DNA of 64,000 bases from Sporopachydermia quercuum. Lineage: Eukaryota. A model generated the notes under the pieces. It was not told where the DNA came from. It ran no database searches and saw only the letters and a program-made list of their open reading frames with translations. Shown one piece after another: positions 5,339 to 62,496 of this stretch. The stretch covers positions 1,612,001-1,676,000 of the forward strand of contig BCGN01000002.1 in the NCBI GenBank assembly GCA_001599295.1. Direction: 5' to 3'. A program made the position numbers and the translations under genes. Within the stretch, counting starts at the first letter, position 1. Each line of letters starts with the position of its first letter.

Positions 5339-6105
5339 TTAAGCAATCAATTCGACAACACCACCAGCAGCCTTAATCTTTTCTTCAGCTAACTTGGAAA
5401 CAAATCTAGCCTTAACAATAACAGGAACTTGAGGTAATCTTCCTTTACCCAAAACCTTACCGTAGCCAGCAGCCAAAGTATCAATGACAGGGGCAGCTTC
5501 AGAAGAAGCAGCAGACAAGTACTTATCTCTGGATTCAGTAGGAACAAGAGTCCATAGTTTATCAAGGTTGATAACTGGTTTCCAAAAATGAGCTTGCTGC
5601 TTATGAAAGTATCTCATACCAACCTTACCAAAGTAACCAGGATGGTATTTATCCAAGTTAGTTCTGTGATGGTGTTGACCACCAGCCATACCTCTACCAC
5701 CAGGATTCTTTCTGTGCTTTCCGATACGACCGTAACCGGCTAGGAAAAGTTAGTGTACTATTCAAAAATAAGTTTAATGAAAACTGACAAACAATCTACA
5801 AAGCGGAGTCTCAAGCAATATATATTCATCTCCGTCTCAAGACGCCCATATGTTGTGCCGACATTTCTATGATCATACAATAAGATAAATTCTGATAAGT
5901 TGCAATTCAAACAATCTGATCAATCTCCAACTATTGTGAACAAACAATTCATCTAATGCAATTAAAAACTCCAAAGATCGTTATTGCTTCAATAGTAATA
6001 TACTTCTCACTCGTTATCTTGATTGCTTTGACATAAAACAAGAATCGTTAACATACCGGTTACGTGGCCTCTGTGTTTTCTTGTCTTTGTTAATCTGGTA
6101 GGCAT
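5339..6105 (-). CDS. RPL28: 60S ribosomal protein uL15 (L28/L27a); exons 6057-6105 and 5339-5739
   Basis: Spliced product [42 protein letters not shown]...; intron 5740-6056 GTATGT...CACTAAC...TAG, phase 1. Confidence 0.97.
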
Positions 6106-6257: not shown

Positions 6258-6269
6258 AACCTGAGTCCT
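6258..6269 (-). promoter_or_regulatory. Candidate RP-promoter motif AGGACTCAGGTT (RPL28)
   Basis: Identical 12-mer upstream of RPS14 and 8-mer core upstream of RPL39, at similar distance and in the same orientation. Confidence 0.55.
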
Positions 6270-6889
6270 CACAAGCTGGAGAATTGCCCAGGCATACAAT
6301 GAATAATTTTGCGTGGGTACACCAAGATTTCATAGTCGAGCTTCGATAGAGAATTCTATATGAAACATATGAGCACGGACAGAGATATACAGAATTCTGC
6401 CCAAGCAAATAAACACTAAATGCATCCTGTGATAACCACGTGATGATTAGGTCATATTTTAACTTTACAACGCTCTTTGATCTTTGATCTTTGAATAGTA
6501 CGTAGGATATGAAGAAAGCTGCTTATTGATATCACTTTGATTTTTCAATCACGGTAGAAAATTAGAGAATTTTACAGAGATCAATCATATTTACCTATGT
6601 ATTGCATTCATGCCCGTCTGTGCATCGTACTGATGTATGCTCAATAGGGAACAGTTTCAAAGACAGTTGGTGTGGAAGGCGAATAGGAAATTACTGGTAC
6701 TCAACTGTTTTGGCATCAACCATGAATAACCCGATTACATGACACTATAAAGTGGACTTTCTCATTCAAATTCATGTGGTGTACTAGTGATTGTGATTAA
6801 ATTGAACTCAATCTTTATTATTACTCTAGGATAAAAAATAGAGATATACTTTAATATTACAGACAACTAAATCCTCAAATCCCCACTCA

Positions 6890-7584
6890 TTATATTTCCT
6901 GGTAACGTTGCATTAATAATCGCTTATACTCGGTTGGATTTTCATCCCAAAGTTGGGCAGCCCTTAATATTTGTAGTTAGTACAGTACTTTTTAGCCAGA
7001 AAATTACTTAACTGTATCAAAGCGCAATAACATACTGTGCGTTCAACGGACTACTGTTATTCGGTTCATTTAGTAGCGATTGCAATGAAAGTAAAATTGT
7101 TTGCACGTTATAAATTGCCGACCACTTTTCCTTGAGAATATCCAAACAGATATTTCCTGCCATGTCAACATTCGGGTGGTACATCGGAGAAACAAACTTG
7201 ATCGTTGGTGCAGCATATGGGTAGTTTTGGGGGAAAGTTAAGGAAATTTTGAATGTTAATCCTTCGTAGTACGTTCCTTCAGGACCAGCTATGGTTCCTG
7301 CCCATTGAAGCATGTCAGCGTCAGATTCAGGAAATGCACTAATACCTGGAGTTGTAGACATCTATTCAATTAATGCTGTTAGTATTACCCTCAGAGGAAC
7401 AGGAAATTGTTTAGAACGAGTGGCCTATTCCTTGACGTTGCAGAGACAAACTGATACTTACCATTAATTGTAAAAGCTCACTTTGTAATCTTTTTGTGAC
7501 AGAATGATTGTCAGTAGCTGGTGTTGAAGCACCTGAAAGCTTAGAACTATTAATCATAGCTGGATTGGCGTTTTGAGCATCCAT
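6890..7584 (-). CDS. UBC11: Ubiquitin-conjugating enzyme E2-C (UbcH10 type); exons 7462-7584, 7036-7361, 6890-6962
   Basis: [15 protein letters not shown] and [15 protein letters not shown] active-site motif; introns 7362-7461 (GTAAGT/TACTAAC/TAG) and 6963-7035 (GTATGT/TACTAAC/AAG) restore the C-terminus [19 protein letters not shown]. Confidence 0.93.
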
Positions 7585-9696
7585 TTTAATTTCAGAAGAA
7601 AGGTCTCGAAAATAGACTAACGAAAAAACCGATGAATATATAAAATCTTAAAACAATGTTGTTATTTTCTCCTTATTAACTGTATTGATGTATTTGAGAT
7701 TCTTCAACTGTTGTAAATAAATGTTAGGATGGTTACCTCAGATTAGTTATGAACGAGGCTTACAATTTAGGTCAGGCCGAACCAGTGTCATATTTCTACT
7801 TACTGAATAAACGCCACTGCTATGTTAATGACTCTGAATCAATAGTAGACTGTTGGTAAAATTTATTAATTATTCTTTTATAATCTGATAATCAAACTGC
7901 TTTCTCTGATGATTATACCACAAATCGGGGAAGTAAATAATTATGTCAGTTTAGTTGTTATAAACCATTAACAAACGCGAAATATTTCTTAAATTGCTAT
8001 TTTACTCAAATATAGTATTGTTTATTCTGAACAATTCTTTCATTAGATTATGAAAAAGAAAGAAAAAGAATATAAATGAGAACAAGAATGCAGATATTGG
8101 ATTGGAGAGAGGGAGGAATGAAATGATTACTGTCAACGGAATTGAAGAAATTTAGTTCACACGCTCTTTTTGTCTTACAGTGTGATGTTTACCAGTTACT
8201 AATAATTAACTACTACTTTTAGATATTGTCTACATATTGAATTCGTATTCCGTTTTAAGACAGCTACATCAGACATCGATTGCTTATAACTATGAAAGTA
8301 CATAAATATACATGAATAGATATAACTCTAGATATCCATATATTTTTTCTACTTCATCTCTTTTTCAATTCCCAGCCCTATTTATATCTATAGTCATTGT
8401 GAAGAAATGCTTAGCTTCTTGCTCCCTGATAAGTATAAAAGCTGACCAGTTTTACAGCTTCAGATTTCCCTTCAACTGTAAATGAAAATTCTTATCAGGG
8501 ATATATAGCTTTATAGTGGGATCAGTACACTGTTCTCCAAGTCAATTGCTTACATTGATTATGCACAACATACGGTAGTCCAGTATTCTCACCTATTATC
8601 ATAGGATTGAGGGATAGTTTCAACTATATCTTTTGATATCAGAACTCCCTTTATACTTTTGAACTATCATCTGGGAGCAATACTCTGTAATTAAGCGAAC
8701 GAATATGTTCTGTATTATTAATCAAGCAGCCAACAATTCTGTAGTTTCCCTTCCGATGCATGAAGGATAGTTAACATCGGTACTATAAATTGATAATTAA
8801 TTGGAGGTTGCACACAGCTTCTTCAATAGAGTTTGATTTGTAGTTGATTTTTTCTTAATTAGGAATACTAATATCACTCCTTGTTTGGAAGTGGGTAAAC
8901 AGCAAACAGATAGATCACATGTACACGATCTCCTATCTCTTGTCAATGAATATTCTTTTGAAAAGACATATTTATCTGAGTGCTCGAAAGCGAAGATATC
9001 TCAATTATTGGAATCCTCTAGCTGGAAGTGTTTGAGAAGTCGAGCTGACTCCGGCAATTCCCTTCATACGATTTCCCCATCGCAGCGCGCACCTCGTAGA
9101 ATTTTCGTTTAGTCAGGCTGTGCATGCTGGCGGTTAGGTGTTGATCTCGAGCTCTTCAGAATGTAAGATTGGCTCATCTTTTAACATAAATGAATAGACT
9201 TCAAATATCCAAACTTCAAATAGCTCTTTCAAAAAGAAAGAAATCTTAGAATTTACCTAGCTCATCCCATTATTATCAGAACTACATTGTTCCTGGCTGC
9301 TTATCACACATTAGATTTCGAATCTTCCATCAATATTCATAGAAACAAAATACTGATTAATTGATTATGTCATCCGCAACTAAACATCTATCACACTATT
9401 CAATGGACATTGAATAACTTAATCTACCTGTACAATTTTTTTCTTTTTCAGATCACTTTAATTGCCATTGGATTGAAGAGAAATGCTATGTCGTGGGAAA
9501 AGATGAATAGTTTTTGTATATGTATTAGCCTAAAGAGTTTCAATTTACTATTCTGAGTTTTCCTCTAACTATTTGTTCTAATTGAATTACCTGGGTCCTG
9601 TTATAGGATGTTCTTCATGAGTTGCAGATAATATTCTGTCAAATTTGACTCTGATAGACAACTAGATGGCATATTTTGAGGTTCAGGTAAATAATA

Positions 9697-11562
9697 ATGA
9701 GTGGAAGTGATAAATTGAAACAGAATGCTCCGAAAAGAAAAGTGAGTCAGTCAGCTTCAGAAGGGGGTGGAAATGCAAGGGCTAAGAGGAGTCGACTAAA
9801 TTCTTCACCACCAGGACCATCTTCATCATCTCTAGAAGCAGAGAATATACCTTTAGCTCAAGTTGAAGCTGTTAAAGAAAATGGCCTTTCCAAAAATTTT
9901 GGACTAACAATATCTACTTTGGAGTCAGTAGAGTATTATGTATCGCAGTTAACCAATGCAGTGGAAAATATCATACAATTTGCACCCACACAAGAAGTGA
10001 ATGATAGGATTCTGAATTCTGAATCTTCAAACTCAACGGAACTGATTCAAACACTGTCTAGAAAGAAAGTTCAATTGGCAGTATTGTTGAAGAATGTCCA
10101 CACAAAAGGTCATTTGAAACTTTTTGATCAACTACTGGAGTTTACAAAAGCTCAAGATTTGCAGAAACTATCCAATTTGAGTGATAAGGAGAATGAAATA
10201 AAGAAACCATCAACTATAGCGATAGTAAAAGCACAGACAGGTGTGAAGAATTATGATCCTGGACTTGGATCATTCCCTTCATTACCAGAGATTAATAATA
10301 AGGCATTAGAGTTTCAAGTGTTCAGTCATAAGTCCCGGATGAACGATAAGGACTATCTAACAGATGAAGAACGAATATCTGGTAGCAACGAACGGTTGGA
10401 ATTCTTAGGAGATTCAATTCTTGGTACGGTGGTGACAGAAACACTATTTGACAAATTTCCTTACGCTAGAGAAGGAGCATTGACAAAGTTACGATCGAAA
10501 TGTGTTTGTAATGATACTCTAAGAAAATGGGCTGAAGCTTATGAGTTTCCCTCTCGTATTTTATTTGACGATAAAAAAATACAAGCATTGAGAGTTAAGA
10601 CGAAAGATACTGACAAACCTGAGAAAGAAAGTTCAACAGTATTAGAAGAAGTCGCTGCAGGAAAAGGGAAAATTTTTGCTGATGTGTTGGAGGCATATAT
10701 AGCAGCCGTCGTGCTTGATTCTGAGAATGGAAGACAGGTGGCTACTAAGTGGATTCAAGCTTTGATTAAACCACTTATAGATAAGGCAGAGTGTACGCTG
10801 AAAAACGAAAGGCTCAACGAAAATGCCAAGAACGTTTTATACTCTAAAGTGGGATCAGCGCAAACTCCCATTGAATATTTACGCGTACGAAAAGGTGACG
10901 GTCAAAAAATTGATTATGTTGTGCATGCTCGTATAAATGGTACTGTCGTAGGTAAAGGTAGGGGAAAAAGTGAAAAAGATGCAAAGACACGGGCTGCCAT
11001 GGATGCTTTAGCAAATGAAGAGCTGATTGAACAGTTTGCATCAATAAGGAGAGAAAAGCCAAGATCAGAAACAATGATTAAAGAGGAAGAGAGACAAGAA
11101 ACTGTGACATCAGTGATCAAATACCCTTTAGTTCAGAATGATGGTGATAATAATGGTTACGTAGAGAAACCTCTATCTTCCCCGAAATCTGAAGTAGTTG
11201 CACCTATAAGAAGGAATGCTGTTCTACTGGATTCTCTAACCGATAGTTTAGCTGATAAAAAGTTTTCTGAATTTTTTGCGAAAACGGTGATTCAAGATAT
11301 GCCTGATGAAGAAGTCTCTCCTGATGCCAAACAACGACTAGTACAAGAATGTAACAATAAACCTTTAGGACGACCTATCTATAAACATGTGGCGATTCAT
11401 GAGACTATTCCTTATCCGGAATTTGAAGCAAATGTATATCTAAAAGGAGTTTTAGTCGGGAAAGGAGTAGGTAGAAGTAAAAGAGCTGCCGAAAGAAAAG
11501 CCGCTGAGATCGCTTTGAAAGGTATCAAGCTTTTTTATGGTACAGATAAAAAAGGACAATAA
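9697..11562 (+). CDS. DCR1: RNase III of the Rnt1/budding-yeast Dicer (Dcr1) family with two dsRBDs
   Basis: One RNase III domain (NERLEFLGD, KIFADVLEA) and two dsRBDs (GKGRGKSEKDAKTRAAMDAL; GKGVGRSKRAAERKAAEIAL); no helicase or PAZ domain seen. DCR1 versus RNT1 naming is uncertain. Confidence 0.85.
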   Translation: MSGSDKLKQNAPKRKVSQSASEGGGNARAKRSRLNSSPPGPSSSSLEAENIPLAQVEAVKENGLSKNFGLTISTLESVEYYVSQLTNAVENIIQFAPTQEVNDRILNSESSNSTELIQTLSRKKVQLAVLLKNVHTKGHLKLFDQLLEFTKAQDLQKLSNLSDKENEIKKPSTIAIVKAQTGVKNYDPGLGSFPSLPEINNKALEFQVFSHKSRMNDKDYLTDEERISGSNERLEFLGDSILGTVVTETLFDKFPYAREGALTKLRSKCVCNDTLRKWAEAYEFPSRILFDDKKIQALRVKTKDTDKPEKESSTVLEEVAAGKGKIFADVLEAYIAAVVLDSENGRQVATKWIQALIKPLIDKAECTLKNERLNENAKNVLYSKVGSAQTPIEYLRVRKGDGQKIDYVVHARINGTVVGKGRGKSEKDAKTRAAMDALANEELIEQFASIRREKPRSETMIKEEERQETVTSVIKYPLVQNDGDNNGYVEKPLSSPKSEVVAPIRRNAVLLDSLTDSLADKKFSEFFAKTVIQDMPDEEVSPDAKQRLVQECNNKPLGRPIYKHVAIHETIPYPEFEANVYLKGVLVGKGVGRSKRAAERKAAEIALKGIKLFYGTDKKGQ

Positions 11563-12338
11563 TACTCAATAGTCAGTTATTAATGAATATGAAATTTTAG
11601 TTCTGTCATACAGGTTTATAGGATTTGTAGTTTCTTGGTCTTGTAAATTGTTTGCCATTTCACTCCTTCTAAAAGAATCGCCAATATCAGATCCTGAAGT
11701 ATTTTTTGAATCGCCTGAAGGCCCAGCAAGTTGCCATTCTCATTCAGTAGTTCCAAACGGTTGTGTACATTATNATACTAAGTAACCGTAATATCTATTG
11801 TTGAAACGTAATATCTGAAGTGATTATCGAAGGATGTCAAATAGCAGTGAGAATTCATTATCTTAATATAAGAGAGACTCATTATTGCATCTTGTGGGAT
11901 TTTTGTATTATGGCATAGATCATGGCTATTATTACATGTATATATCATAGTGAGACATTAAGTTTTCTAAGCTTTTTGAACATGAAGTAACCCAGGTAAT
12001 AAGGCCTGTCACTCCACAGAACGATTATTTACCACTTTATCCTAGAATTCCAATAGAAGGAAGACAGAGGATAGTTAAATATAGTATTTTCCTAATCGGA
12101 AAATTTAGAGTAAGCAAATATACTTCTGTTGAGAGAAGACAAATTCGTGGATGGTGGACAACCAATGGTGGACACGATGAAAATGGTGGCATTACGCTGG
12201 CTTTTATTTCATTTTTACTTTGGTATGTTTTAGCATTTACTTAAAGCGATTGCTTACAGTTATATATATAATAACGGGACCTTGAACGGACATTGTCCCA
12301 TTAATTTTCATGGCCGGTAGACTAACTTATTTAGAGCA

Positions 12339-12665
12339 ATGAACTTCAGGGACCAGGTTTACGGAGTGACACGAAACATTCCTTACGGTAAAGTTTTGAC
12401 ATACGGTGATATTGCCCGTATCCTTGATAAGCCGAACAATGCGCGACATGTCGGACAAGCATTGAAGCAATTACCTGGATCTACAAGTTTACCTTGGTGG
12501 AGGGTTGTTGGTGTCAATGGTGTTTCATTACGAGGGAATGCAGGTTTAGAACAAGTCCGGAGATTAGGAGAGGAGAATATAGAAGTGCATGGTTGGAGTA
12601 TGAATGTCGAGTTGTATAGAGTTCGATCGACCGATATTAATATAGGTGAAACTGGGTATATATAA
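12339..12665 (+). CDS. ATL1: Alkyltransferase-like protein (ATL/Atl1/YbaZ family)
   Basis: IPYGKVLTYGDIA...ARHVG helix-turn-helix of the MGMT family; PWWRV replaces the catalytic PCHRV; 108 aa. Confidence 0.9.
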   Translation: MNFRDQVYGVTRNIPYGKVLTYGDIARILDKPNNARHVGQALKQLPGSTSLPWWRVVGVNGVSLRGNAGLEQVRRLGEENIEVHGWSMNVELYRVRSTDINIGETGYI

Positions 12666-12993
12666 AAGGACCAATACTAAATGGTGATAGCTCACGGACA
12701 TGATCTTACTTAGTACACTTGGTGTCGTTGATGTAGTCCGAATAGACCATTGTAAAAAGTTCTGTTTAAGTGGTTTGAAAATTTGTTTTTTATTCGATGG
12801 TTAGTCGCTCATTATTCACAGATAGCCTACTGTAACTCCATTCTATTCCTAGAATGCCCATACAATCCTGAACCCACAATTCTACCTCTACAAATCAAAT
12901 TAATGCTGAGATTTATCAAATTACAGCAAATCCTTCATTATATTTATACAGACATAGCTGAGGGTTGTTTTTGAACAAATGATATAATGTAAC

Positions 12994-13271
12994 TTAGATG
13001 CCCAACTTGGTTCTTCTCCAGTGTCTTCTCTTAGCGTTGTATCTAATGGTGTTGTCAGTCTTGAGACGGAACCATTGAGGAATTTGTCTGTTCTGCTTTT
13101 GAGCCTTGGCCAACTTGACCTTTGTTCTGAATGACTTATTGCTCTACATAGTTTGTTAGTAACTTGTCCCAATATCTCCCTGACTTTAATACAGGGGCAC
13201 TTCACAATTCGAAAGCATCTAGCCTTTTTTCTTGTATCACTCTTCCTCCATCATCATGTACATACAGGCAT
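12994..13271 (-). CDS. RPL39: 60S ribosomal protein eL39; exons 13266-13271 and 12994-13143 (absent from ORF track)
   Basis: Spliced 51-aa product [51 protein letters not shown]; intron 13144-13265 GTATGT...TACTAAC...TAG. Confidence 0.97.
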
Positions 13272-13894
13272 AGTGAATAGTTATTGCTTAACTTTTGATG
13301 TGTTGATCAGAAGATAATTCAAACAATAATCTTTGCTATTAGGTAAGTATATATTGAAGTCGTCGTCAAATATGTATATCACTAAGGAAAAATATGAGTC
13401 CTCTTCCTGTTAGTCTCTCACNAGCTTCCAAGGTTGACAAGTGAATTAATGAGAGCATGGAAAACAAAGAGGAACATTGTGCGTGGGTTTGTCTTTTCTG
13501 GAGTGAAAATGGTTAGCCAATACTTAATAACAGTCACAACACGTGAAGTAACTAAGGTGTCCTCATAATGGTTTATATTTTNTTATGGTTGTGACGTGCA
13601 TTACCAAACTAGGATATATGTCTTACGTGAAGTGAAGTGAAGTATCTCAGTATTTATAAATAATTAATATTTTCAAATGACGCATTAAATTGTAAGTGGT
13701 TCCTCACTATGTGAGGGCGGAGTTTGGGTGTTGGTTGAACAAACTATCAAATCTTCGAAGGAGAAGGACTCAGGTTTTCTTTTCACGCACTTGATAACTA
13801 CCATTCTTTCTATATGATTAGTGCAATAGACGATAGTGAAGGTCAATAGTCTTTTTGAATATTTTCATCAACTACAGACCAAATACATTTCAAG
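13272..13894. promoter_or_regulatory. Bidirectional RPL39/RPS14 promoter
   Basis: Divergent RP genes. AGGACTCA at 13395-13402 (-) and 13765-13772 (+); Homol D box CAGTCACA at 13531-13538 next to CACGTG at 13540-13545; inverted GTTGTGAC at 13588-13595. Confidence 0.8.
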
Positions 13895-14766
13895 ATGGCT
13901 CCAAAGACTGGTATGTGCATAAAAGAGAATATAATTAATACAAAGGAGATATTCATTGATCAATAAGCAGTTANGGCAGGTGATGTTTGTTGAATGTAGG
14001 AGTTACTGAAGGAGAAGATTTATACCGAGCGACAAATAAAGTGTAATAAACAGGTCAACCTATGAGAGTAGTTAATCAACAAGTTATAAGGAAGTTCTGG
14101 AGTTGTTGAAATTTGAGACGAAATGACCCTTCCGTCGAATGTTATTGAAGGAATTGTTTATCAGCAATACAAAGCTGAAAAAAGATCACTAGAAAGCAAC
14201 TAAACCATTCAACGTTTCTTCTATGATCTAGTTGTATAATCAACAAACATCGGTGTGAAAATGCGAAAAGCCATTTTGGGCGTTGAATATTTCCTAGTAC
14301 GATTTGTTATCATTAGTTTTACCGTATCTCATGTACTAACTTATTAGAAAACGTTACCTTAGGCCCACAATCCCGTGATGGCAGCCAAGTTTTTGGCGTT
14401 GCTAGAATTTTTGCTTCTTTCAACGATACCTTTGTTCACGTTACTGATTTATCAGGACGTGAAACCATCTCTCGCGTTACCGGTGGTATGAAGGTCAAGG
14501 CCGACAGAGATGAATCATCTCCTTACGCTGCTATGTTGGCTGCCCAAGATGTTGCCGTTAAATGCAAGGAAGTTGGAATTACTGCTGTTCACATCAAAAT
14601 CAGAGCTACTGGTGGTACCGGTACCAAGACTCCTGGTCCTGGTGGTCAATCAGCCTTGAGAGCTTTGGCTAGATCTGGTCTCCGAATTGGTCGTATTGAA
14701 GATGTTACCCCAATTCCTTCAGACTCTACTAGAAGAAAGGGTGGTAGAAGAGGTAGAAGACTTTGA
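13895..14766 (+). CDS. RPS14: 40S ribosomal protein uS11 (S14); exons 13895-13910 and 14348-14766
   Basis: [45 protein letters not shown]...GGRRGRRL; intron 13911-14347 GTATGT...TACTAAC...TAG. Confidence 0.97.
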
Positions 14767-28213: not shown

Positions 28214-28943
28214 TTTATTTTCAATGGCTATGTTCCGACTCTCTATATTTGCTGTCTCAGTGCTGAATAAGTCAGAACTTCAGTGACTATTGGCCATCTT
28301 GACTAACGATGTCGTTCTTCCGTCTATCTGTTGTGTGATGTAGATTCAATAATAGATTCCCTCAGTTTAATACAAAATAATCCAAAAAAAAACACTCCAA
28401 AATATTATTTTTTAGTATTTCTATTATATTAGTATTATATCTGAGAATCCTATTATAAAAGGAAGGTAATCAATCCAAATCTGGGGCAAGAACTACCTCA
28501 CTTACTATAAGTCTTAAAATTGACTTTATCGTGCAATTCGTTGAGTTAAATGAAGATCGAGCAGACAGTTGACTTTATAGATTAATTCATGGTTTGCACC
28601 ATATAAATACTCAGTAACAATAGAATTTGAGCCTCAAAAACTATATAATAATGAGAAGATATATAATAGTTCCTACCAATACTTTCTATGATATACTCTT
28701 TTGTCATCTTACAAACTCCAAGGTAATAGATACTTTTCTTTGCTTTACCTGGCATGATGGGTAATGAGACAAGATTCCCTTAATAGTTACCCTATTCCTT
28801 CACGTGCTATAAACAATGAATCATTTCATTGTCAGTACTTTACTGATTATGTAACCATAAATGAGTTGGTTGTAATGAGACCCTTATGATTCTGCCGTGG
28901 ATACACGGATGGAGTCTTGTTGAACACATTTATTGCGTAGAAA

Positions 28944-28951
28944 CAGTCACA
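28944..28951 (+). promoter_or_regulatory. Homol D box upstream of the snoRNA host gene
   Basis: Exact CAGTCACA about 300 bp upstream of the first donor; TCACGTG at 28800-28806; followed by a long pyrimidine-rich tract. Confidence 0.55.
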
Positions 28952-29299: not shown

Positions 29300-29386
29300 T
29301 TTAAATGATGATTGAACAAAACAAAGCTGGAATTACTGGCAGAACTATAGTGTTGAGAACCTTTTGGTACCATACGCCGCTGAAAA
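29300..29386 (+). ncRNA. SNR77: Box C/D snoRNA snR77 (guide for 18S Um578, S. cerevisiae numbering)
   Basis: C box ATGATGA 29305-29311; guide AGCTGGAATTAC complementary to 18S GTAATTCCAGCT; D' CAGA 29340-29343 (fifth nucleotide pairs with U); D box CTGA 29380-29383. Confidence 0.9.
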
Positions 29387-29501
29387 CTAATCAATTTCAA
29401 ATGAATTAGCGAAGATAACTTACTAATTTTGTTTGAGAAAGTTGTGACTAACAATTGCATTAGGTATGGATCATTCTAGTTAAAAAATTTACTTTGTAGT
29501 G

Positions 29502-29587
29502 TTGAGATGAAGACTCTAAGCACTGGGCACCGATACATAATGAGTGATAATGCTTAGTGGGCCTAGAAAACCCACGTTACAGATCAA
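29502..29587 (+). ncRNA. SNR76: Box C/D snoRNA snR76 (guide for 25S Cm2197)
   Basis: C box ATGAAGA 29507-29513; guide AGCACTGGGCA complementary to 25S TGCCCAGTGCT; D' CCGA 29530-29533; D box CAGA 29580-29583; terminal TTGA/TCAA stem. Confidence 0.85.
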
Positions 29588-29748
29588 TTGCAATGGAACA
29601 ATAAATAATAGAATCAAGGTGAAAGTAACCACATTATAGAGCCAGAGATTAACCAATGTTTTAGATGAATGGAAATTGTTTTCTATATGATTGCTATTCT
29701 AAATTGTAAGTATACTGAGAAGTTCTTTCAACCCGCAAGCTTATTTAC

Positions 29749-29836
29749 CAAAGTGATGATATTCTTAGATGACGAGTCGGATGGGTTTCCTACTGACGAT
29801 AAAACTATTTAATTACCATTCATGCATTTCTGATAT
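29749..29836 (+). ncRNA. SNR75: Box C/D snoRNA snR75 (guide for 25S Gm2288)
   Basis: C box GTGATGA 29753-29759; guide TTAGATGACGAG complementary to 25S CTCGTCATCTAA; D' CGGA; second rRNA-complementary element CCATTCATGC; D box CTGA 29830-29833. Confidence 0.92.
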
Positions 29837-29987
29837 TTGTATTTTAATTTGCGAGTTCATTCTGAGTAATTTCAAGAAAAATCGTATTATTAGGAATCAA
29901 AGCTAACCAATAAATTTAGTGTAGAACATTTGTTTTCCAATGTATTGTTTTGGTATGGAATGCTTTAACTAAGCTTCGTTANATAGT

Positions 29988-30060
29988 CGCAGAAGATGAA
30001 CATTTTAAAATTTTGACAAGCATATGTCTGACTATTGATGAATTTTTTATGTCTGATGCG
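29988..30060 (+). ncRNA. SNR74: Box C/D snoRNA snR74 (guide for 18S Am28)
   Basis: Terminal stem CGCA/TGCG; degenerate C box AAGATGA; guide GACAAGCATATG complementary to 18S CATATGCTTGTC; D' CTGA 30028-30031; C' TTGATGA; D box CTGA 30053-30056. Confidence 0.92.
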
Positions 30061-30195
30061 TTTATTTGATGATACTACTAAATCGTTCTAGACCGGACTG
30101 AATTCCCACTTTACAAAGTTCCCTTAGGGAAGTAAATAAGGTAAGCTATTTCGAGAGTATATAAACCTCCATTTGAATATTGAGTAGCTTGTTAA

Positions 30196-30293
30196 ATCGC
30201 ATGATGATCTCTCCACAACTCACGACGGTCAACTGTGTCCGAAATACGGACGTTGATGATAATCAGCCTGTGACAAGGCGTGGAAACTGAATC
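30196..30293 (+). ncRNA. SNR73: Box C/D snoRNA snR73 (guide for 25S Cm2959)
   Basis: C box ATGATGA 30201-30207; guide CTCACGACGGTC complementary to 25S GACCGTCGTGAG; internal GTCCG/CGGAC hairpin; C' TTGATGA; GCCTGTGACA element; D box CTGA 30287-30290. Confidence 0.9.
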
Positions 30294-35756: not shown

Positions 35757-37227
35757 TTAATTACCATCCCCATTAGAATAGGAAATTACTGCCCATTTGC
35801 CAGACCAAACCCATCCTTCTTTGGGCTCTTTACCCATAGCCAAATATTCTTGTTCCAGCTCTTTATCTTGACCTTTTCTTAGATTGACGCATACATCAGC
35901 CTTACAAGTTCGTAAAGCAAGAACTTTCACACCTGAAGTTGCCAATTCTTGAATAGCATCAATAAATGATGTCTCTCTTGGCCACATACAATCGCCAGTC
36001 AATTTTCTATAGTTTAAGTCACCTTTAAAAATAACTAAATTAGAATTGATCAANTCTTTCCAAACATCAGCACCTCCATTCAACCCATGTTCATTGATTT
36101 GCCAGTACGTTTCAAAACTAGTCCAGAAAGGATCAGATCTCTCTTCAATTTGCCCAGCTTCAATATAAGATGTAATCTTTTCAGCTAAAAAGCCCAATTC
36201 TTCTCTATGTTCAGGGAAAAAATCCGCGTCTTTTAAATCAGCAACTAAAGCTTTAAAGTCCCAAGGTGTTACGTCAGAAACCATCCAAGGGATATTCTTA
36301 GTATGAAATACAGCCTTGGAGATTAACTTTGAATCAAGCAAATAGAGAGTTAAGATCATATCAGTGTAAAGTTCAAATCCTGAATTGTCCAAAACAAAGT
36401 CAACTCTTTTATTAGCAACTGAGCTGTCAGAAATGATACTCCATGCTTTGTTTGTATCGTTAACAATTATCTTGCTCTCACTCTTTTTCCTTGCCTCAGC
36501 TCCTTGAACTGATTTTATATCATCTAAAGTAGCATTAGCAAGTAATGATAAATCAGTAGCATTGCCCCAGAGTGATACTTCGATGAATTCTTTAAACAAT
36601 AACTTCAAAGTTTCTTCATCAACCTTCTTGGAACCACCACCAGCTAACTCTTTAGAAAGGTTTTTATATCTAACAGCTAATTCACCAACCCCAAAAGCAG
36701 ATGATTTGTAAGTATTTTCTTTCAAATTGAAGAAAACATCGTACTCCTTCCAGAACTCAGAGTGATAAAAAATCTGGTTGATCTTTCTGTAGAATATACA
36801 TTCACTGAAAAGCCATGGTGCGTTCAACCAAGTAATCTCTTTTCCAATTGCTTTCAATGCATCATCATAATTCTTCAATCCCTCAATTTCGTCATCATCG
36901 AAAGGAGTAATTACATCTCCATTAGCAATTGCAGTTTTTAAAGCTGTCAGTTTCTCACTCACTTTCTGTCCGTCAATTTTCTTATCACTTTCAGTATCAG
37001 GTAATGCAGGATAAGTTTCTGTGATATCAGTAATAGTATTGGTGATAATGGCTAACCATCTAATTCTTGCAGTTGTCCAACCAAATGAATTGGGATCATC
37101 ATTCATATAAGGAGAAGGAGGAGTTGCTATTGGTTGATTCGTTAGTCCAAATATTTAGATACAAGTATCAACAGTTTGTTTATTCCAGATTTGTAGAATA
37201 ATAGTCTAACTACTTACGAGGAGTCAT
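35757..37227 (-). CDS. DUF89/ARMT1-family damage-control phosphatase (YMR027W-like); exons 37218-37227 and 35757-37126
   Basis: SLWGNATDLS, VLDNSGFEL, IFKGDLNYRKL and LRTCKAD motifs; intron 37127-37217 GTAAGT/GACTAAC/TAG. Confidence 0.93.
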
Positions 37228-38138
37228 TTTGATTAACTTTAGCTATCTCAGTTGTTATTTGACCAAATACTATTATGATCTCACAGAATTGAATCCACAG
37301 CAATGTACAAGACAGAGAAGTACCAATGGAGTCAAATAAATAACAGTTTCGCTAGATAGTGTTTCTTGACATCATCAGAAGCAATTTTCCTTCTCTCCAA
37401 TATTGCAGAGTGCATTGATTACGCATAATAAACATTCAATTAAGCTTTACGCATTCTCATTACCTTGTTGAGATGTCATTTACCCTGAGTACATGGCATA
37501 TGATAGGTACAACGGAACTGGGATTGCAGATCTGTGCAACCAGAAGAGTTCTGAACATTTGAATGAGGCCAATAAACTCTTAGTTATCCTTTTAGTTTTT
37601 ACACTCAATATGAAAATAAGAGTCAATTATCGAGTTTAACAATAATATCTATGATGAGTCCTCTTCTTTCTCCTATCCCCACATGGCTATTTAATTCCGT
37701 CTCTACTAATCAGGAAGTTGAAATAAATGGGTTATTGCATGTATACGTAATCATTATATAAAATGCTTTTCTACTGGCTCCCTAAATTGAGACCCTTTGC
37801 TAGATCAACATTAATTATGGAGTGTAGTAAATCTTCTGATGTGATGGCCTGTTCTTGTATGTCTTAATGAATTATTTGTTATAGATCAAGTAAATGTTAG
37901 GAGGCAAACGAGCTTATAGTGAAATCGGATCTATCAATTGAATACGAAACTCTGTTATACATTTTCATTACTGAAACCAGTCAGCCGATAGCAATATATC
38001 GACGTACATAGTATTATTCGTTTCTTGCAGGCAAAGCAAAGACAGAAACAAATCTATTCATACGTTGCCCTTTATTAGCCATTTCTGAGCGAAATAAGCA
38101 TCAGCATTTTCATTTAATATTACACTATTTGATTTATA

Positions 38139-47732: not shown

Positions 47733-47826
47733 TGCTTCGTGGGAGGATCGAACTCTCGACCTTCAGATCACACAGCTAAGTTTATACAGTATGAGACTGA
47801 CGCTCTACCGACTGAGCCAACGAAGC
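47733..47826 (-). tRNA. Elongator tRNA-Met(CAT) with a 21-nt intron (47769-47789)
   Basis: GCTTCGT/ACGAAGC acceptor stem (G1:C72), TGGCTCAGTCGG A box, GTTCGATCC B box, anticodon CAT at 47791-47793, intron after base 37, T7 terminator. Confidence 0.97.
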
Positions 47827-60087: not shown

Positions 60088-62496
60088 CTAAAAGTAGTGT
60101 GTATTTTCCATACTCATATCATGAACTGGCATTTCCTGTGCCTTATAATCGTTGAGTTCTTGTTTAATCAAATCTGCCGTTTCAGGAGTGAGATTGTTAC
60201 AAGTTGCNAACTCGTCAGCCTTACGATCATATTCAGATGATGACCAAGTATCAAACATGATTACTCTGGATGAAAATAACACTTGTGATGACTTTTCTAA
60301 CAACGAAGTTGGTCTTAGAAGAGGTGAAGATGTTTGAAATTGAGCTCTTAAAGGTCTAGGTGCATGCTTTGGAGCAGTTGATGTTGACATTGACTTTAGC
60401 GAAGGTGAAGTTTTCAAGACCGGTTTTGTAGGATTAGGAGAAGTGGGTGGAGAAGGTAAAGAAGTTGTGGAAGGAAATGAAGGTAAAGGTTGTCCAGTTG
60501 TAGACTTGAATAAAGATCTGAACCTAGATTTAGAACTTTTTGATGCAATAGAAGTTGTAGAATGTGTTCTTGCTAGTGTAGGCAAATCTGTTGTCGAAGA
60601 AGATCGGGAAAGCGTAGATTTTTTAGACTTTCCAAATAATCTGGATATAAGTGACCTCTTCTCTTTAGATGTGGTTTGATCTGGAAGAATAGCTTTAGGA
60701 GATTCTGGTGGTGAAGGTAGGTGAGTCCTTATTTCTGAATCAGTAGTTGTTTGTAAAGAGCTTTCACTTGAGAAAAGAACAGTCATAGATACATCAGATA
60801 TGTCAGACAAGTCAGATATTTCATTGGAGGAGCTGGATGAAAGGGGGGGATCGGATTCTTCAGGTGTCAATAATGGACTTAGGTATGCACTGGAGGGAGG
60901 TAAGAGCTTTCCTGGTAGATCTGTAAACTTCTTATTGGACTTGAAAGGAGTAGTATCAAATTCCTGGTTGTTCTTGATGCCACTCATTGCTCTCTGCCTT
61001 ACTTTAGTGGTTGGTGATGACATTTTGTAAGTTCTAACAGGTCTTGGTTTGGAAATAGTAGGTATATGTAAATCTGGAACTGACACTGATCTTGGCAGAG
61101 TGCGAGCTTGAAAAATGTCACCATAAACAGAAAACCGAGCCGTTGGTGGCCTTTGAGGCATAAAATCGTTGGCTAGCATTTTGATAGTTAGTAGGAGAAT
61201 TTCAACATTCCATAGTTATAATAGATCTTCGTTCAACTGAAAGAGATTTTTTAGTGCAGAACTAAACNCTTTCTTAATAATGATTAAATTCACTAAAGAC
61301 AATAGAAACTAATTGAAACCAGCTAAGACAAGAAAAAAATCATATATATGAAAATGCAGTGATTTTCTCTATTACTAGCAATCTCTGAATGAGTTCGATT
61401 TCCCTTTTGTTTAAAAAAGACGTTTCTATTCGATTTTTAGTTTACCGATTCCTTTCGATCAGGCAATCCTGAAAACTATTGATTCAAATCAGGTATATCG
61501 GCAATATTAGTTCTATCATGAGAAACTTTGTGNTATTGCAGTAGTGACTTTTGTACCTTAGAATGATTCAATCGACATAGAGAAAGAGGAACAGCAGGAT
61601 TATAGAAATTGAAGGCACGAACTATCTCTCTTCATTACGCTTCTCCAACTATTTTTTTCAACAACAAGAGTAAAAAGAAACTCTAAGAAGTCTAGCGTGA
61701 AACCTTAACCGTATATCCAAACCTTAATTATGCCCCTTTCCATTCATGTCACTATTGAATCTGATCGTTAATCAGGAATAAAAAATGCATAGTTGATATA
61801 TGATAAAAAGAAATATAACAAAATAAATGAGGTCACTTCAATTTATAGCTCTTTTGGATGTATAGAATAGTGTCTTGACTGAATATGTGCTTCAAGTTGT
61901 GATAACATAATAACGTGATTAGCCAGAGGACTCCGGACAACAATTTGCAATTGACAGGTGTTTTACCCTTGAGACGATTGAAGACATGTATAATGATGGA
62001 AATATCGGGTAGTTATTGAAAGAAATTTGCAATGANAACAACGAAAATGAAGCCATAGAACAAAGAAATCATGACACATGAAAATAAGAAAACGTAGAAA
62101 TTATATATGTTTCAATAATATTAAGAAAGAAATGAGAATAGATCATTTTGAAGTCAGAAAAAAAGTTTACATACCATTTGATTGCCAGCGTTGATCTTCT
62201 GGCTGAGGAGCCCATTTTCTTGAAGAATCCATGGGTTGATAAAAGCTACGAGAGTGAGCATGCTGATGATATCTTTGCTTAGTACTGTTATCACTTGACG
62301 AGTAACATTTTTGAGAATTGATTAAATTATCGTTTGATACATTCAACAATGTTCTGTAGCAATGATTCGTAGGTGGTAGGTCAGAGCCAACACTAGAAGA
62401 GATCGAACCATTTGACGTTGTTCGACTATGATGACTGTATCTCTTAGGATATCCGTGAAAGCTGTTTTCGGTTAAGGCGTTGCCAACAGAAGTCAT
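60088..62496 (-). CDS. BNI4: Bni4/Phactr-like Glc7 (PP1) targeting subunit; exons 62175-62496 and 60088-61172
   Basis: C-terminal VLFSSRV...EYDRK...TCNNLTP...IKQELNDYK...EMPVH...NTHYF domain. A 1002-nt phase-1 intron (61173-62174; GTATGT/TACTAAC/TAG) joins two ORF-track entries in frame, giving 468 aa. Confidence 0.78.

Follow-up and report, generated by a model that had tools for sequence, protein, structure and literature searches.

We investigated an 8-mer, AGGACTCA, that recurs upstream of the ribosomal-protein (RP) genes RPL28, RPL39 and RPS14 in a 64,000-nucleotide stretch of the Sporopachydermia quercuum genome (contig BCGN01000002.1, positions 1,612,001 to 1,676,000; hereafter, the window). 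The pattern of its occurrence leads us to favour, by a modest degree, its being a real, strand-specific and promoter-proximal cis-element of the RP genes in this yeast, read by a putative sequence-specific DNA-binding protein. The presence of the word at the three genes, its strand, its spacing and its rarity were all observed directly, as was its lack of a threshold match to 13 matrices for RP-gene regulators (one score at a single copy excepted). We regard it as plausibly a cis-element that is new within a regulon of a known kind.

The word occurs exactly five times in the window, counting both strands. At RPL28 it lies on the minus strand at 6262-6269, with its 5' end at -164 from the ATG, and at RPS14 on the plus strand at 13765-13772, with its 5' end at -130; in both promoters it extends into a common 12-mer, AGGACTCAGGTT (6258..6269 and 13765..13776, respectively). 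The RPL39 copy, at 13395-13402 on the minus strand, has its 5' end at -131 and is contained within the 13-mer GAAGAGGACTCAT. All three RP copies are on the coding strand, and their distances to the ATG fall within a 34-bp range. Two further copies are on the minus strand, one at 37655-37662, in the intergenic DNA that separates an ARMT1-like gene from TAP42, and one at 60722-60729 inside an open reading frame (ORF; 60088-61179), on the sense strand of that ORF. A previous sequence-only reading of this DNA had proposed the word as a promoter motif, and its coordinates, strands and distances at the three genes, the 12-mer shared by two of them, and its count of only two other copies of the 8-mer all proved correct.

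The leading AG and the T of AGGACTCA are invariant in all five copies, a purine prefix (GAG or GAAG) usually precedes the word, and the 7-mer GGACTCA has no copies in the window beyond the five within AGGACTCA. The word is half G+C, compared to roughly 35% for the window. The divergent promoter of RPL39 and RPS14 contains two copies placed as mirror images, at -131 and -130, each of which points to its own gene. The presence of one copy per gene, facing that gene at an equal distance, argues for a gene-proximal, direction-dependent role.

The three genes, named as RP genes in the sequence-only reading, were each confirmed by a Pfam family. RPL28 (uL15; 5339..6105, minus strand, ATG at 6105; Ribosomal_L27A) consists of exon 1 at 6105-6057, an intron and exon 2 at 5739-5339; RPL39 (12994..13271, minus strand, ATG at 13271; Ribosomal_L39, E=1.6e-23) of exon 1 at 13271-13266, an intron and exon 2 at 13143-12994; and RPS14 (uS11; 13895..14766, plus strand, ATG at 13895; Ribosomal_S11) of exon 1 at 13895-13910, an intron and exon 2 at 14348-14766. 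In each, the first exon is short and the intron has splice signals of the yeast type.

Chance sharing and copies outside the ribosomal-protein promoters

We compared the sharing of AGGACTCA with that of words among 19 non-RP promoters of the window, taken as 300 bp each in the sense orientation and giving 969 triples and 171 pairs. Excluded from this set were one antisense ORF inside MPE1 and the genes for UBC and V-ATPase-G, for which no first exon was modelled. Within the window, AGGACTCA is found in 3/3 RP promoters and in 0/19 non-RP promoters. An 8-mer (or longer word) common to all members of a triple at offsets within 50 bp was found in one of the 969 real non-RP triples, and in 63 and 40 of 20000 triples in first-order Markov simulations. 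The RPS14 ATG was placed 2 bases too far in this triple test, which left the result unchanged. Thus, the agreement in orientation and distance across the three RP genes (sense, at -164, -131 and -130), noted in the sequence-only reading, exceeds what these nulls produce. All of the chance tests on the word were post hoc, with nominal p values of about 0.002-0.03. For zero and one mismatch together, shuffled sequences give about 50 occurrences, and the window contains 30 one-mismatch variants; these variants are therefore not enriched, and the exact word, itself over-represented, stands out from its neighbours.

A number of results weigh against the reading of AGGACTCA as an RP element. With the position condition dropped, 39 of the 969 real non-RP triples have an 8-mer in common, as do 657 and 667 of 20000 first-order Markov triples, a rate of roughly 3-4%. 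The window total of five, against 1.93 expected, was reached in 3/100 shuffles and is unremarkable alone, and a shared 12-mer occurs in 3/171 pairs of unrelated promoters. The sample comprises three genes in two intergenic regions, the word was picked after looking, and the case for an RP element rests on those three genes. The fourth copy (37655-37662), which precedes the ARMT1-like ATG by about 436 bp (with the first exon read at 37226), lies in a non-ribosomal intergenic region and is identical to the RPL39 copy over the 13-mer GAAGAGGACTCAT. We found neither a hidden snoRNA (small nucleolar RNA) nor a hidden RP gene there, with no Rfam match at E<=0.4 and no Pfam family in local ORFs. This copy argues against strict RP specificity, or else reflects an unrelated use of the same factor. 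AGGACTCA is likewise missing from the promoter of a snoRNA cluster in the window and from the BCD1 promoter. Finally, a metagenome scan for RPS14 gave 0/80 loci with AGGACTCA in the sense upstream sequence, these being distant taxa of at most 91% identity, many with short flanks; the two best yeast-like loci among them (L002 and L044) do not contain the word.

Chance is accordingly the first alternative to be considered. It would require three AT-rich 300-bp promoters to share one 8-mer at similar positions, with the 12-mer and 13-mer extensions being ordinary pairwise coincidence. The any-position rates, the shared 12-mers of unrelated promoters, the shuffle count and the post hoc choice of the word all favour it. 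It is opposed by the scarcity of shared words once position is matched (one real triple, and 40-63 simulated ones), by the G+C content of the word in an AT-rich window, and by the three sense copies with their mirror placement in the divergent promoter. In addition, the same promoters have a second and known RP motif at a fixed distance, so that shared elements are expected in them. We therefore consider chance an unlikely explanation, albeit one that retains some weight.

The fifth copy (60722-60729) is most simply attributed to chance. The putative BNI4-like ORF that contains it has no Pfam family.

The snoRNA cluster mentioned above (29301-30292, plus strand) is of box C/D type and polycistronic-looking, with snR77, snR76, snR75 and snR73 identified by Rfam; gaps within it could hold snR74 and further members. 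Its promoter has a Cbf1 site and a HomolD box without AGGACTCA, indicating that the word, if real, is no general mark of ribosome biogenesis. A 10-mer, AACAGTCACA, which contains a perfect HomolD/Rrn7 box, is found together with a perfect TCACGTG both in the RPL39/RPS14 region (13531-13545) and upstream of the cluster (28800-28951), in line with published evidence that common motifs co-regulate box C/D snoRNA genes and RP genes. Looser words common to the RP and snoRNA promoters (GAGACT, AGCTTGT and TGGGCA) were rejected as too frequent to use.

Known regulator sites within and around the word

We identified a common order of sites in the RP promoters, running from a Cbf1-type site through an Fhl1-type site, AGGACTCA and a TATA-like core to the ATG. 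The Fhl1-type motif [CG]ACGCA is present in the sense orientation in 3/3 RP promoters and in 0/19 non-RP promoters. At RPL28 it is CACGCAA, within ACCCACGCA (6309..6315, minus strand, 5' end at -210); at RPL39 it is CACGCAC (13479-13485, -214 from the ATG), held within AAACCCACGCACA (13478..13490, minus strand), which also scores 7.8 of 14.8 with a Rap1 matrix; and at RPS14 it is GACGCAT (13679..13685, plus strand, -216). RPS14 has a second such site, CACGCAC (13784..13790, plus strand), at -111 and 12 bp behind AGGACTCA. These sites score 6.65-7.36 with the Fhl1 matrix, for which the window contains 12 matches of at least 6.5, four of them in RP promoters and in the sense orientation. The spacing of the motif (-210, -214 and -216) is a tighter regularity than that of AGGACTCA itself. 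As a second motif shared by the three genes, it indicates that these promoters do carry shared elements of the regulon type.

Upstream of the Fhl1-type sites, the RPL28 promoter contains the Cbf1-type site TCACGTG (6436..6443, core CACGTG at 6437-6442), at -337. The middle of the RPL39/RPS14 divergent promoter contains a perfect HomolD/Rrn7 box, CAGTCACA (13531-13538, plus strand), which adjoins a Cbf1-type core CACGTG (13540-13545, in the region 13531..13546) at -274 from RPL39 and -355 from RPS14. The maximum of the Cbf1 matrix (10.16) is reached in both RP regions, and that of the Rrn7/HomolD matrix (10.70) in the RPL39/RPS14 region. A Rap1-like sequence, ACACCCAAACTCC (13719..13731, minus strand), lies upstream of RPS14 and scores 5.97 of 14.8. 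Downstream of AGGACTCA, TATA-like cores are found at -85 in RPL28, at -82 in RPL39 and at about -84 in RPS14 (TATAT, 13811-13815).

We additionally noted other sites in these promoters. The RPL39/RPS14 intergenic region contains a Mcm1-like sequence, TTACCAAACTAGGATA (13601-13616), that scores 7.67 of 16.4 and lies at the 99.994th percentile of the window; Mcm1 sites have been gained repeatedly at RP genes. In the RPL28 promoter, two copies of GCYTGGGCA, each followed by AATTCT, occur on the minus strand at 6285-6300 and 6398-6413, one of them with an extra G in between, and one copy (TGCCCAG) scores 6.21 of 10.0 with the Rim101 matrix. Between AGGACTCA and the TATA-like core of the RPL39 promoter, ACGACGAC (13359-13366, minus strand) scores 8.17 of 9.5 with the matrix of a Botrytis RP motif that has been termed 'widespread but previously unidentified' (Sorrells 2018, PMC6173580).

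We scanned the whole window with 13 log-odds matrices from supplementary file 4 of Sorrells et al. 2018 (PMC6173580), namely Mcm1, Dot6/Tod6, Rim101, the unnamed Botrytis motif, Rap1, Sfp1, Stb3, Fhl1, Hmo1/IFHL, Cbf1, Rrn7/HomolD and two for Tbf1. Scores were taken at the four intergenic copies of AGGACTCA, with the 99.9th percentile of the window as the threshold for each matrix. None of the 13 reaches it at these copies, with the exception of Stb3 at the RPL39 copy only (4.45), a score that is due to the T-run behind the word. The closest matrix is that of Fhl1 (GACGCAA), for which GACTCAG/T scores 3.85-3.86 of 9.34 at all four copies; this lies at the 99.89th percentile, just under the threshold, with a mismatch at an invariant G. 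Next is the Tbf1 matrix of Ascoidea rubescens (YAGGGCTYT), with 2.3-3.0 of 11.9 (99.77th-99.85th percentile; 3.02 and the 99.85th percentile for GAGGACTCA). The TAGGG core of Tbf1 RP sites is not present in the word, and the S. japonicus Tbf1 matrix gives at most -2.7. Scores are at most -2.2 for the HomolD box (CAGTCACA / TGTGACTG; Rrn7 matrix from Arxula), at most -2.3 for the ACACCCRYACAYY-type 13-mer of S. cerevisiae Rap1, and at most -4.4 for the TCACGTG of Cbf1, and the Mcm1, Dot6/Tod6, Rim101, Sfp1, Hmo1/IFHL and Botrytis matrices likewise stay below the 99.9th percentile. The sequence-only reading had held that the word matches none of the RP-regulon sites known from Saccharomyces (Rap1), Candida (Tbf1/Cbf1) and fission yeast (Homol D/E). 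This stands in so far as no matrix reaches threshold outside the Stb3 case, and is to be qualified in that the word is one mismatch, at an otherwise invariant core base, from both the Fhl1 and the Ascoidea Tbf1 cores.

Given this proximity, we considered that the word may be the site of a known RP factor with a lineage-shifted specificity, either a weaker second Fhl1 site (GACTCA for GACGCA) or a derived Tbf1 site (AGGACTC for AGGGCTC), which would make it a sequence variant and no new component. The Fhl1 site (ScerTF matrix, as in Sorrells 2018) resembles AGGACTCA in being common to RP promoters and in lying between upstream activating sites and the core promoter; the GAC-CA core is identical in the two, and of the wrong bases at the position of the G, the T found in the word carries the smallest penalty. 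True Fhl1-type sites stand 46-86 bp upstream of AGGACTCA in each promoter. Tbf1-type RP sites (TTAGGG-like) share with the word a purine-rich AGG-CT(C) core, and the two Tbf1 matrices give the flank of the RPL28 copy, CAGGTTAGAGC/TAGAGCTCG, scores of 6.49 (maximum 14.9) and 5.89 (maximum 11.9).

However, both likenesses break an invariant core position and stay below the 99.9th percentile, and a one-mismatch likeness is not rare when 13 matrices are applied to two strands. The AG prefix that is invariant in AGGACTCA is not demanded by the Fhl1 matrix, and the AG and T do not vary across the five copies. The distal site is always [CG]ACGCA and the proximal one always AGGACTCA, without mixing, which suggests two readers or two binding modes and sets the word apart as a class from the Fhl1-type sites at -210 to -216. 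Compared with Tbf1 sites, AGGACTCA has an A in the middle of the GGG triplet, purines in place of the TT before AGG, and no palindrome such as the TTAGGGN6CCCTAA of Candida albicans (Lavoie 2010). No good Tbf1 site was found in these RP promoters by the matrix scan, the best scoring 5.89 of 11.9. Thus, a shifted specificity of a known factor appears improbable, somewhat more so than chance.

The Gcn4/AP-1 heptamer has the consensus TGA(C/G)TCA, and six of its seven bases (GACTCA, its right-hand part) are found in AGGACTCA. A general transcription factor that is not tied to RP genes, for example one reading a variant bZIP half-site, might therefore account for the word, its presence in three RP promoters and one other intergenic region then being fortuitous; the fourth copy, with its 13 bases in common with the RPL39 copy, is in keeping with this. 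We consider it the least probable of the alternatives and doubt it strongly: the first T of the heptamer is a G in all five copies, each with an A before it, three of the four intergenic copies are RP-proximal at one distance, and the eight canonical TGACTCA copies in the window are all outside the RP promoters. One of these canonical sites, within ATGACTCAT (1823-1829), lies about 430 bp upstream of an ornithine carbamoyltransferase (ARG3-like) gene.

Among other yeasts, the promoters around AGGACTCA resemble the 'Cbf1 plus Rap1' class described for the methylotrophic yeast Hansenula polymorpha, in which five MEME motifs (RRPE, Cbf1, poly(A), Rap1A and Rap1B) are reported in passages of the study concerned (PMC6510891); AGGACTCA is not one of the five motifs named in those passages. 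By our own reading, the H. polymorpha Rap1B consensus, GGTGYGAGGWGT, is matched at 9/12 positions by the RPL28 copy taken together with its flanking bases (TTGTGAGGACT), and at only 6-7/12 by the other copies. The HomolD box, which in fission yeast is the site for Rrn7 in the promoters of RP and snoRNA genes, as set out in parts of Diao 2014, offers a possible working analogy, being likewise a short, oriented, promoter-proximal word of RP genes at a fixed distance. The two sequences are unrelated, and the perfect HomolD box stands separately from AGGACTCA in the RPL39/RPS14 region and upstream of the snoRNA cluster.

Literal matches to AGGACTCA in the full-text literature were only primers and adaptors among the matches listed, and the supplements of Diao 2014 yielded no matches other than snoRNA and primer sequences; the word is not present in supplementary file 5 of Sorrells 2018, which gives the best Mcm1 sites only. 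An origin from a telomere repeat was considered and rejected: when its flanking bases are included, the RPL28 copy is similar to the Y. lipolytica repeat TTAGTCAGGG, but this is so for one copy only, and no telomere repeat containing AGGACTCA was found in the main text of the telomere literature examined.

Genomic setting and relatives of the window

The remaining genes of the window include a complex-I subunit, a budding-yeast-type Dicer-like RNase III, ISWI, TAP42 and NUP120. The best database relatives of TAP42 have 42-43% identity (Ogataea, Kuraishia, Pachysolen and Babjeviella), and those of NDUFS1 have 67-73% identity and are spread over many budding-yeast families. Judged by these similarities, the source is a budding yeast, and the collections searched contain no close relative of it; four proteins of the window that were looked up had no exact match there. 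A metagenome scan with the Dicer-like protein found no syntenic relatives, and the contigs of two other organisms (X4 and X5, 80% likeness) match coding parts of the window only, leaving its promoters uncovered.

The Dicer-like RNase III (9697-11562, plus strand) has an N-terminal domain and two dsRNA-binding motifs, as in the Dcr1 type of budding yeasts, which hints that RNA interference may be retained in this yeast. A tRNA gene of 94 bases (47733-47826, minus strand), found by Rfam (51.8 bits) and not by ARAGORN, probably contains an intron. In sequencing run X1, besides the main contig, a low-depth contig (251 bases, depth 2.1) matches RPL39 exon 2 (window 13006-13122) with 14 differences; its origin may be a second copy, contamination or a different strain. 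The window contains 56 N letters, mostly single bases, with three in the region studied here (13422, 13582 and 13934), one of which precedes the RPL39 copy of AGGACTCA by 20 bp.

A possible role and its place in the turnover of the regulon

If AGGACTCA is a real RP element, a protein would bind it between the retained upstream sites and the TATA-like core (at about -82 to -85). The sites upstream of it would be activating ones, namely CACGTG at -274 to -355 and [CG]ACGCA at -210 to -216, with the divergent promoter having Rap1-like and HomolD sites in addition. The bound word may help to position the transcription machinery of the adjacent gene or to give it direction, much as the HomolD box or the Fhl1/Ifh1 layer does in other yeasts, and the remaining RP genes of the genome would be predicted to use it as well.

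The sequence-only reading had seen in the word a lineage-specific rewiring of the RP regulon. As stated, this is unsupported, because conserved Cbf1- and Fhl1-type sites persist; the same promoters contain perfect Cbf1, Fhl1-type, perfect HomolD and Rap1-like sites. AGGACTCA is an addition to the conserved RP toolkit and no replacement of it. More tentatively, and at less than even probability in our estimation, the word may be the site of a factor not previously tied to RP genes, serving, across the whole RP regulon of an isolated lineage of budding yeasts, as the promoter-proximal element that sets direction. It would then be a further solution beside Rap1, Tbf1/Cbf1, Mcm1 and HomolD/Rrn7, built on a retained framework of Cbf1 and Fhl1.

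The RP regulon is a textbook case of cis-regulatory turnover in fungi, in which, as sections of Lavoie 2010 and Sorrells 2018 describe, some 80 genes stay co-regulated as the DNA words and their readers change. The turnover of RP-promoter words among fungi is already well documented, and a further lineage-specific word would be one more example of it. This series would gain one more state from a new, oriented and proximal word in a lineage with no closely related sequenced species, and the presence of AGGACTCA beside retained Cbf1- and Fhl1-type sites could show the gain of a new element before the loss of the old.

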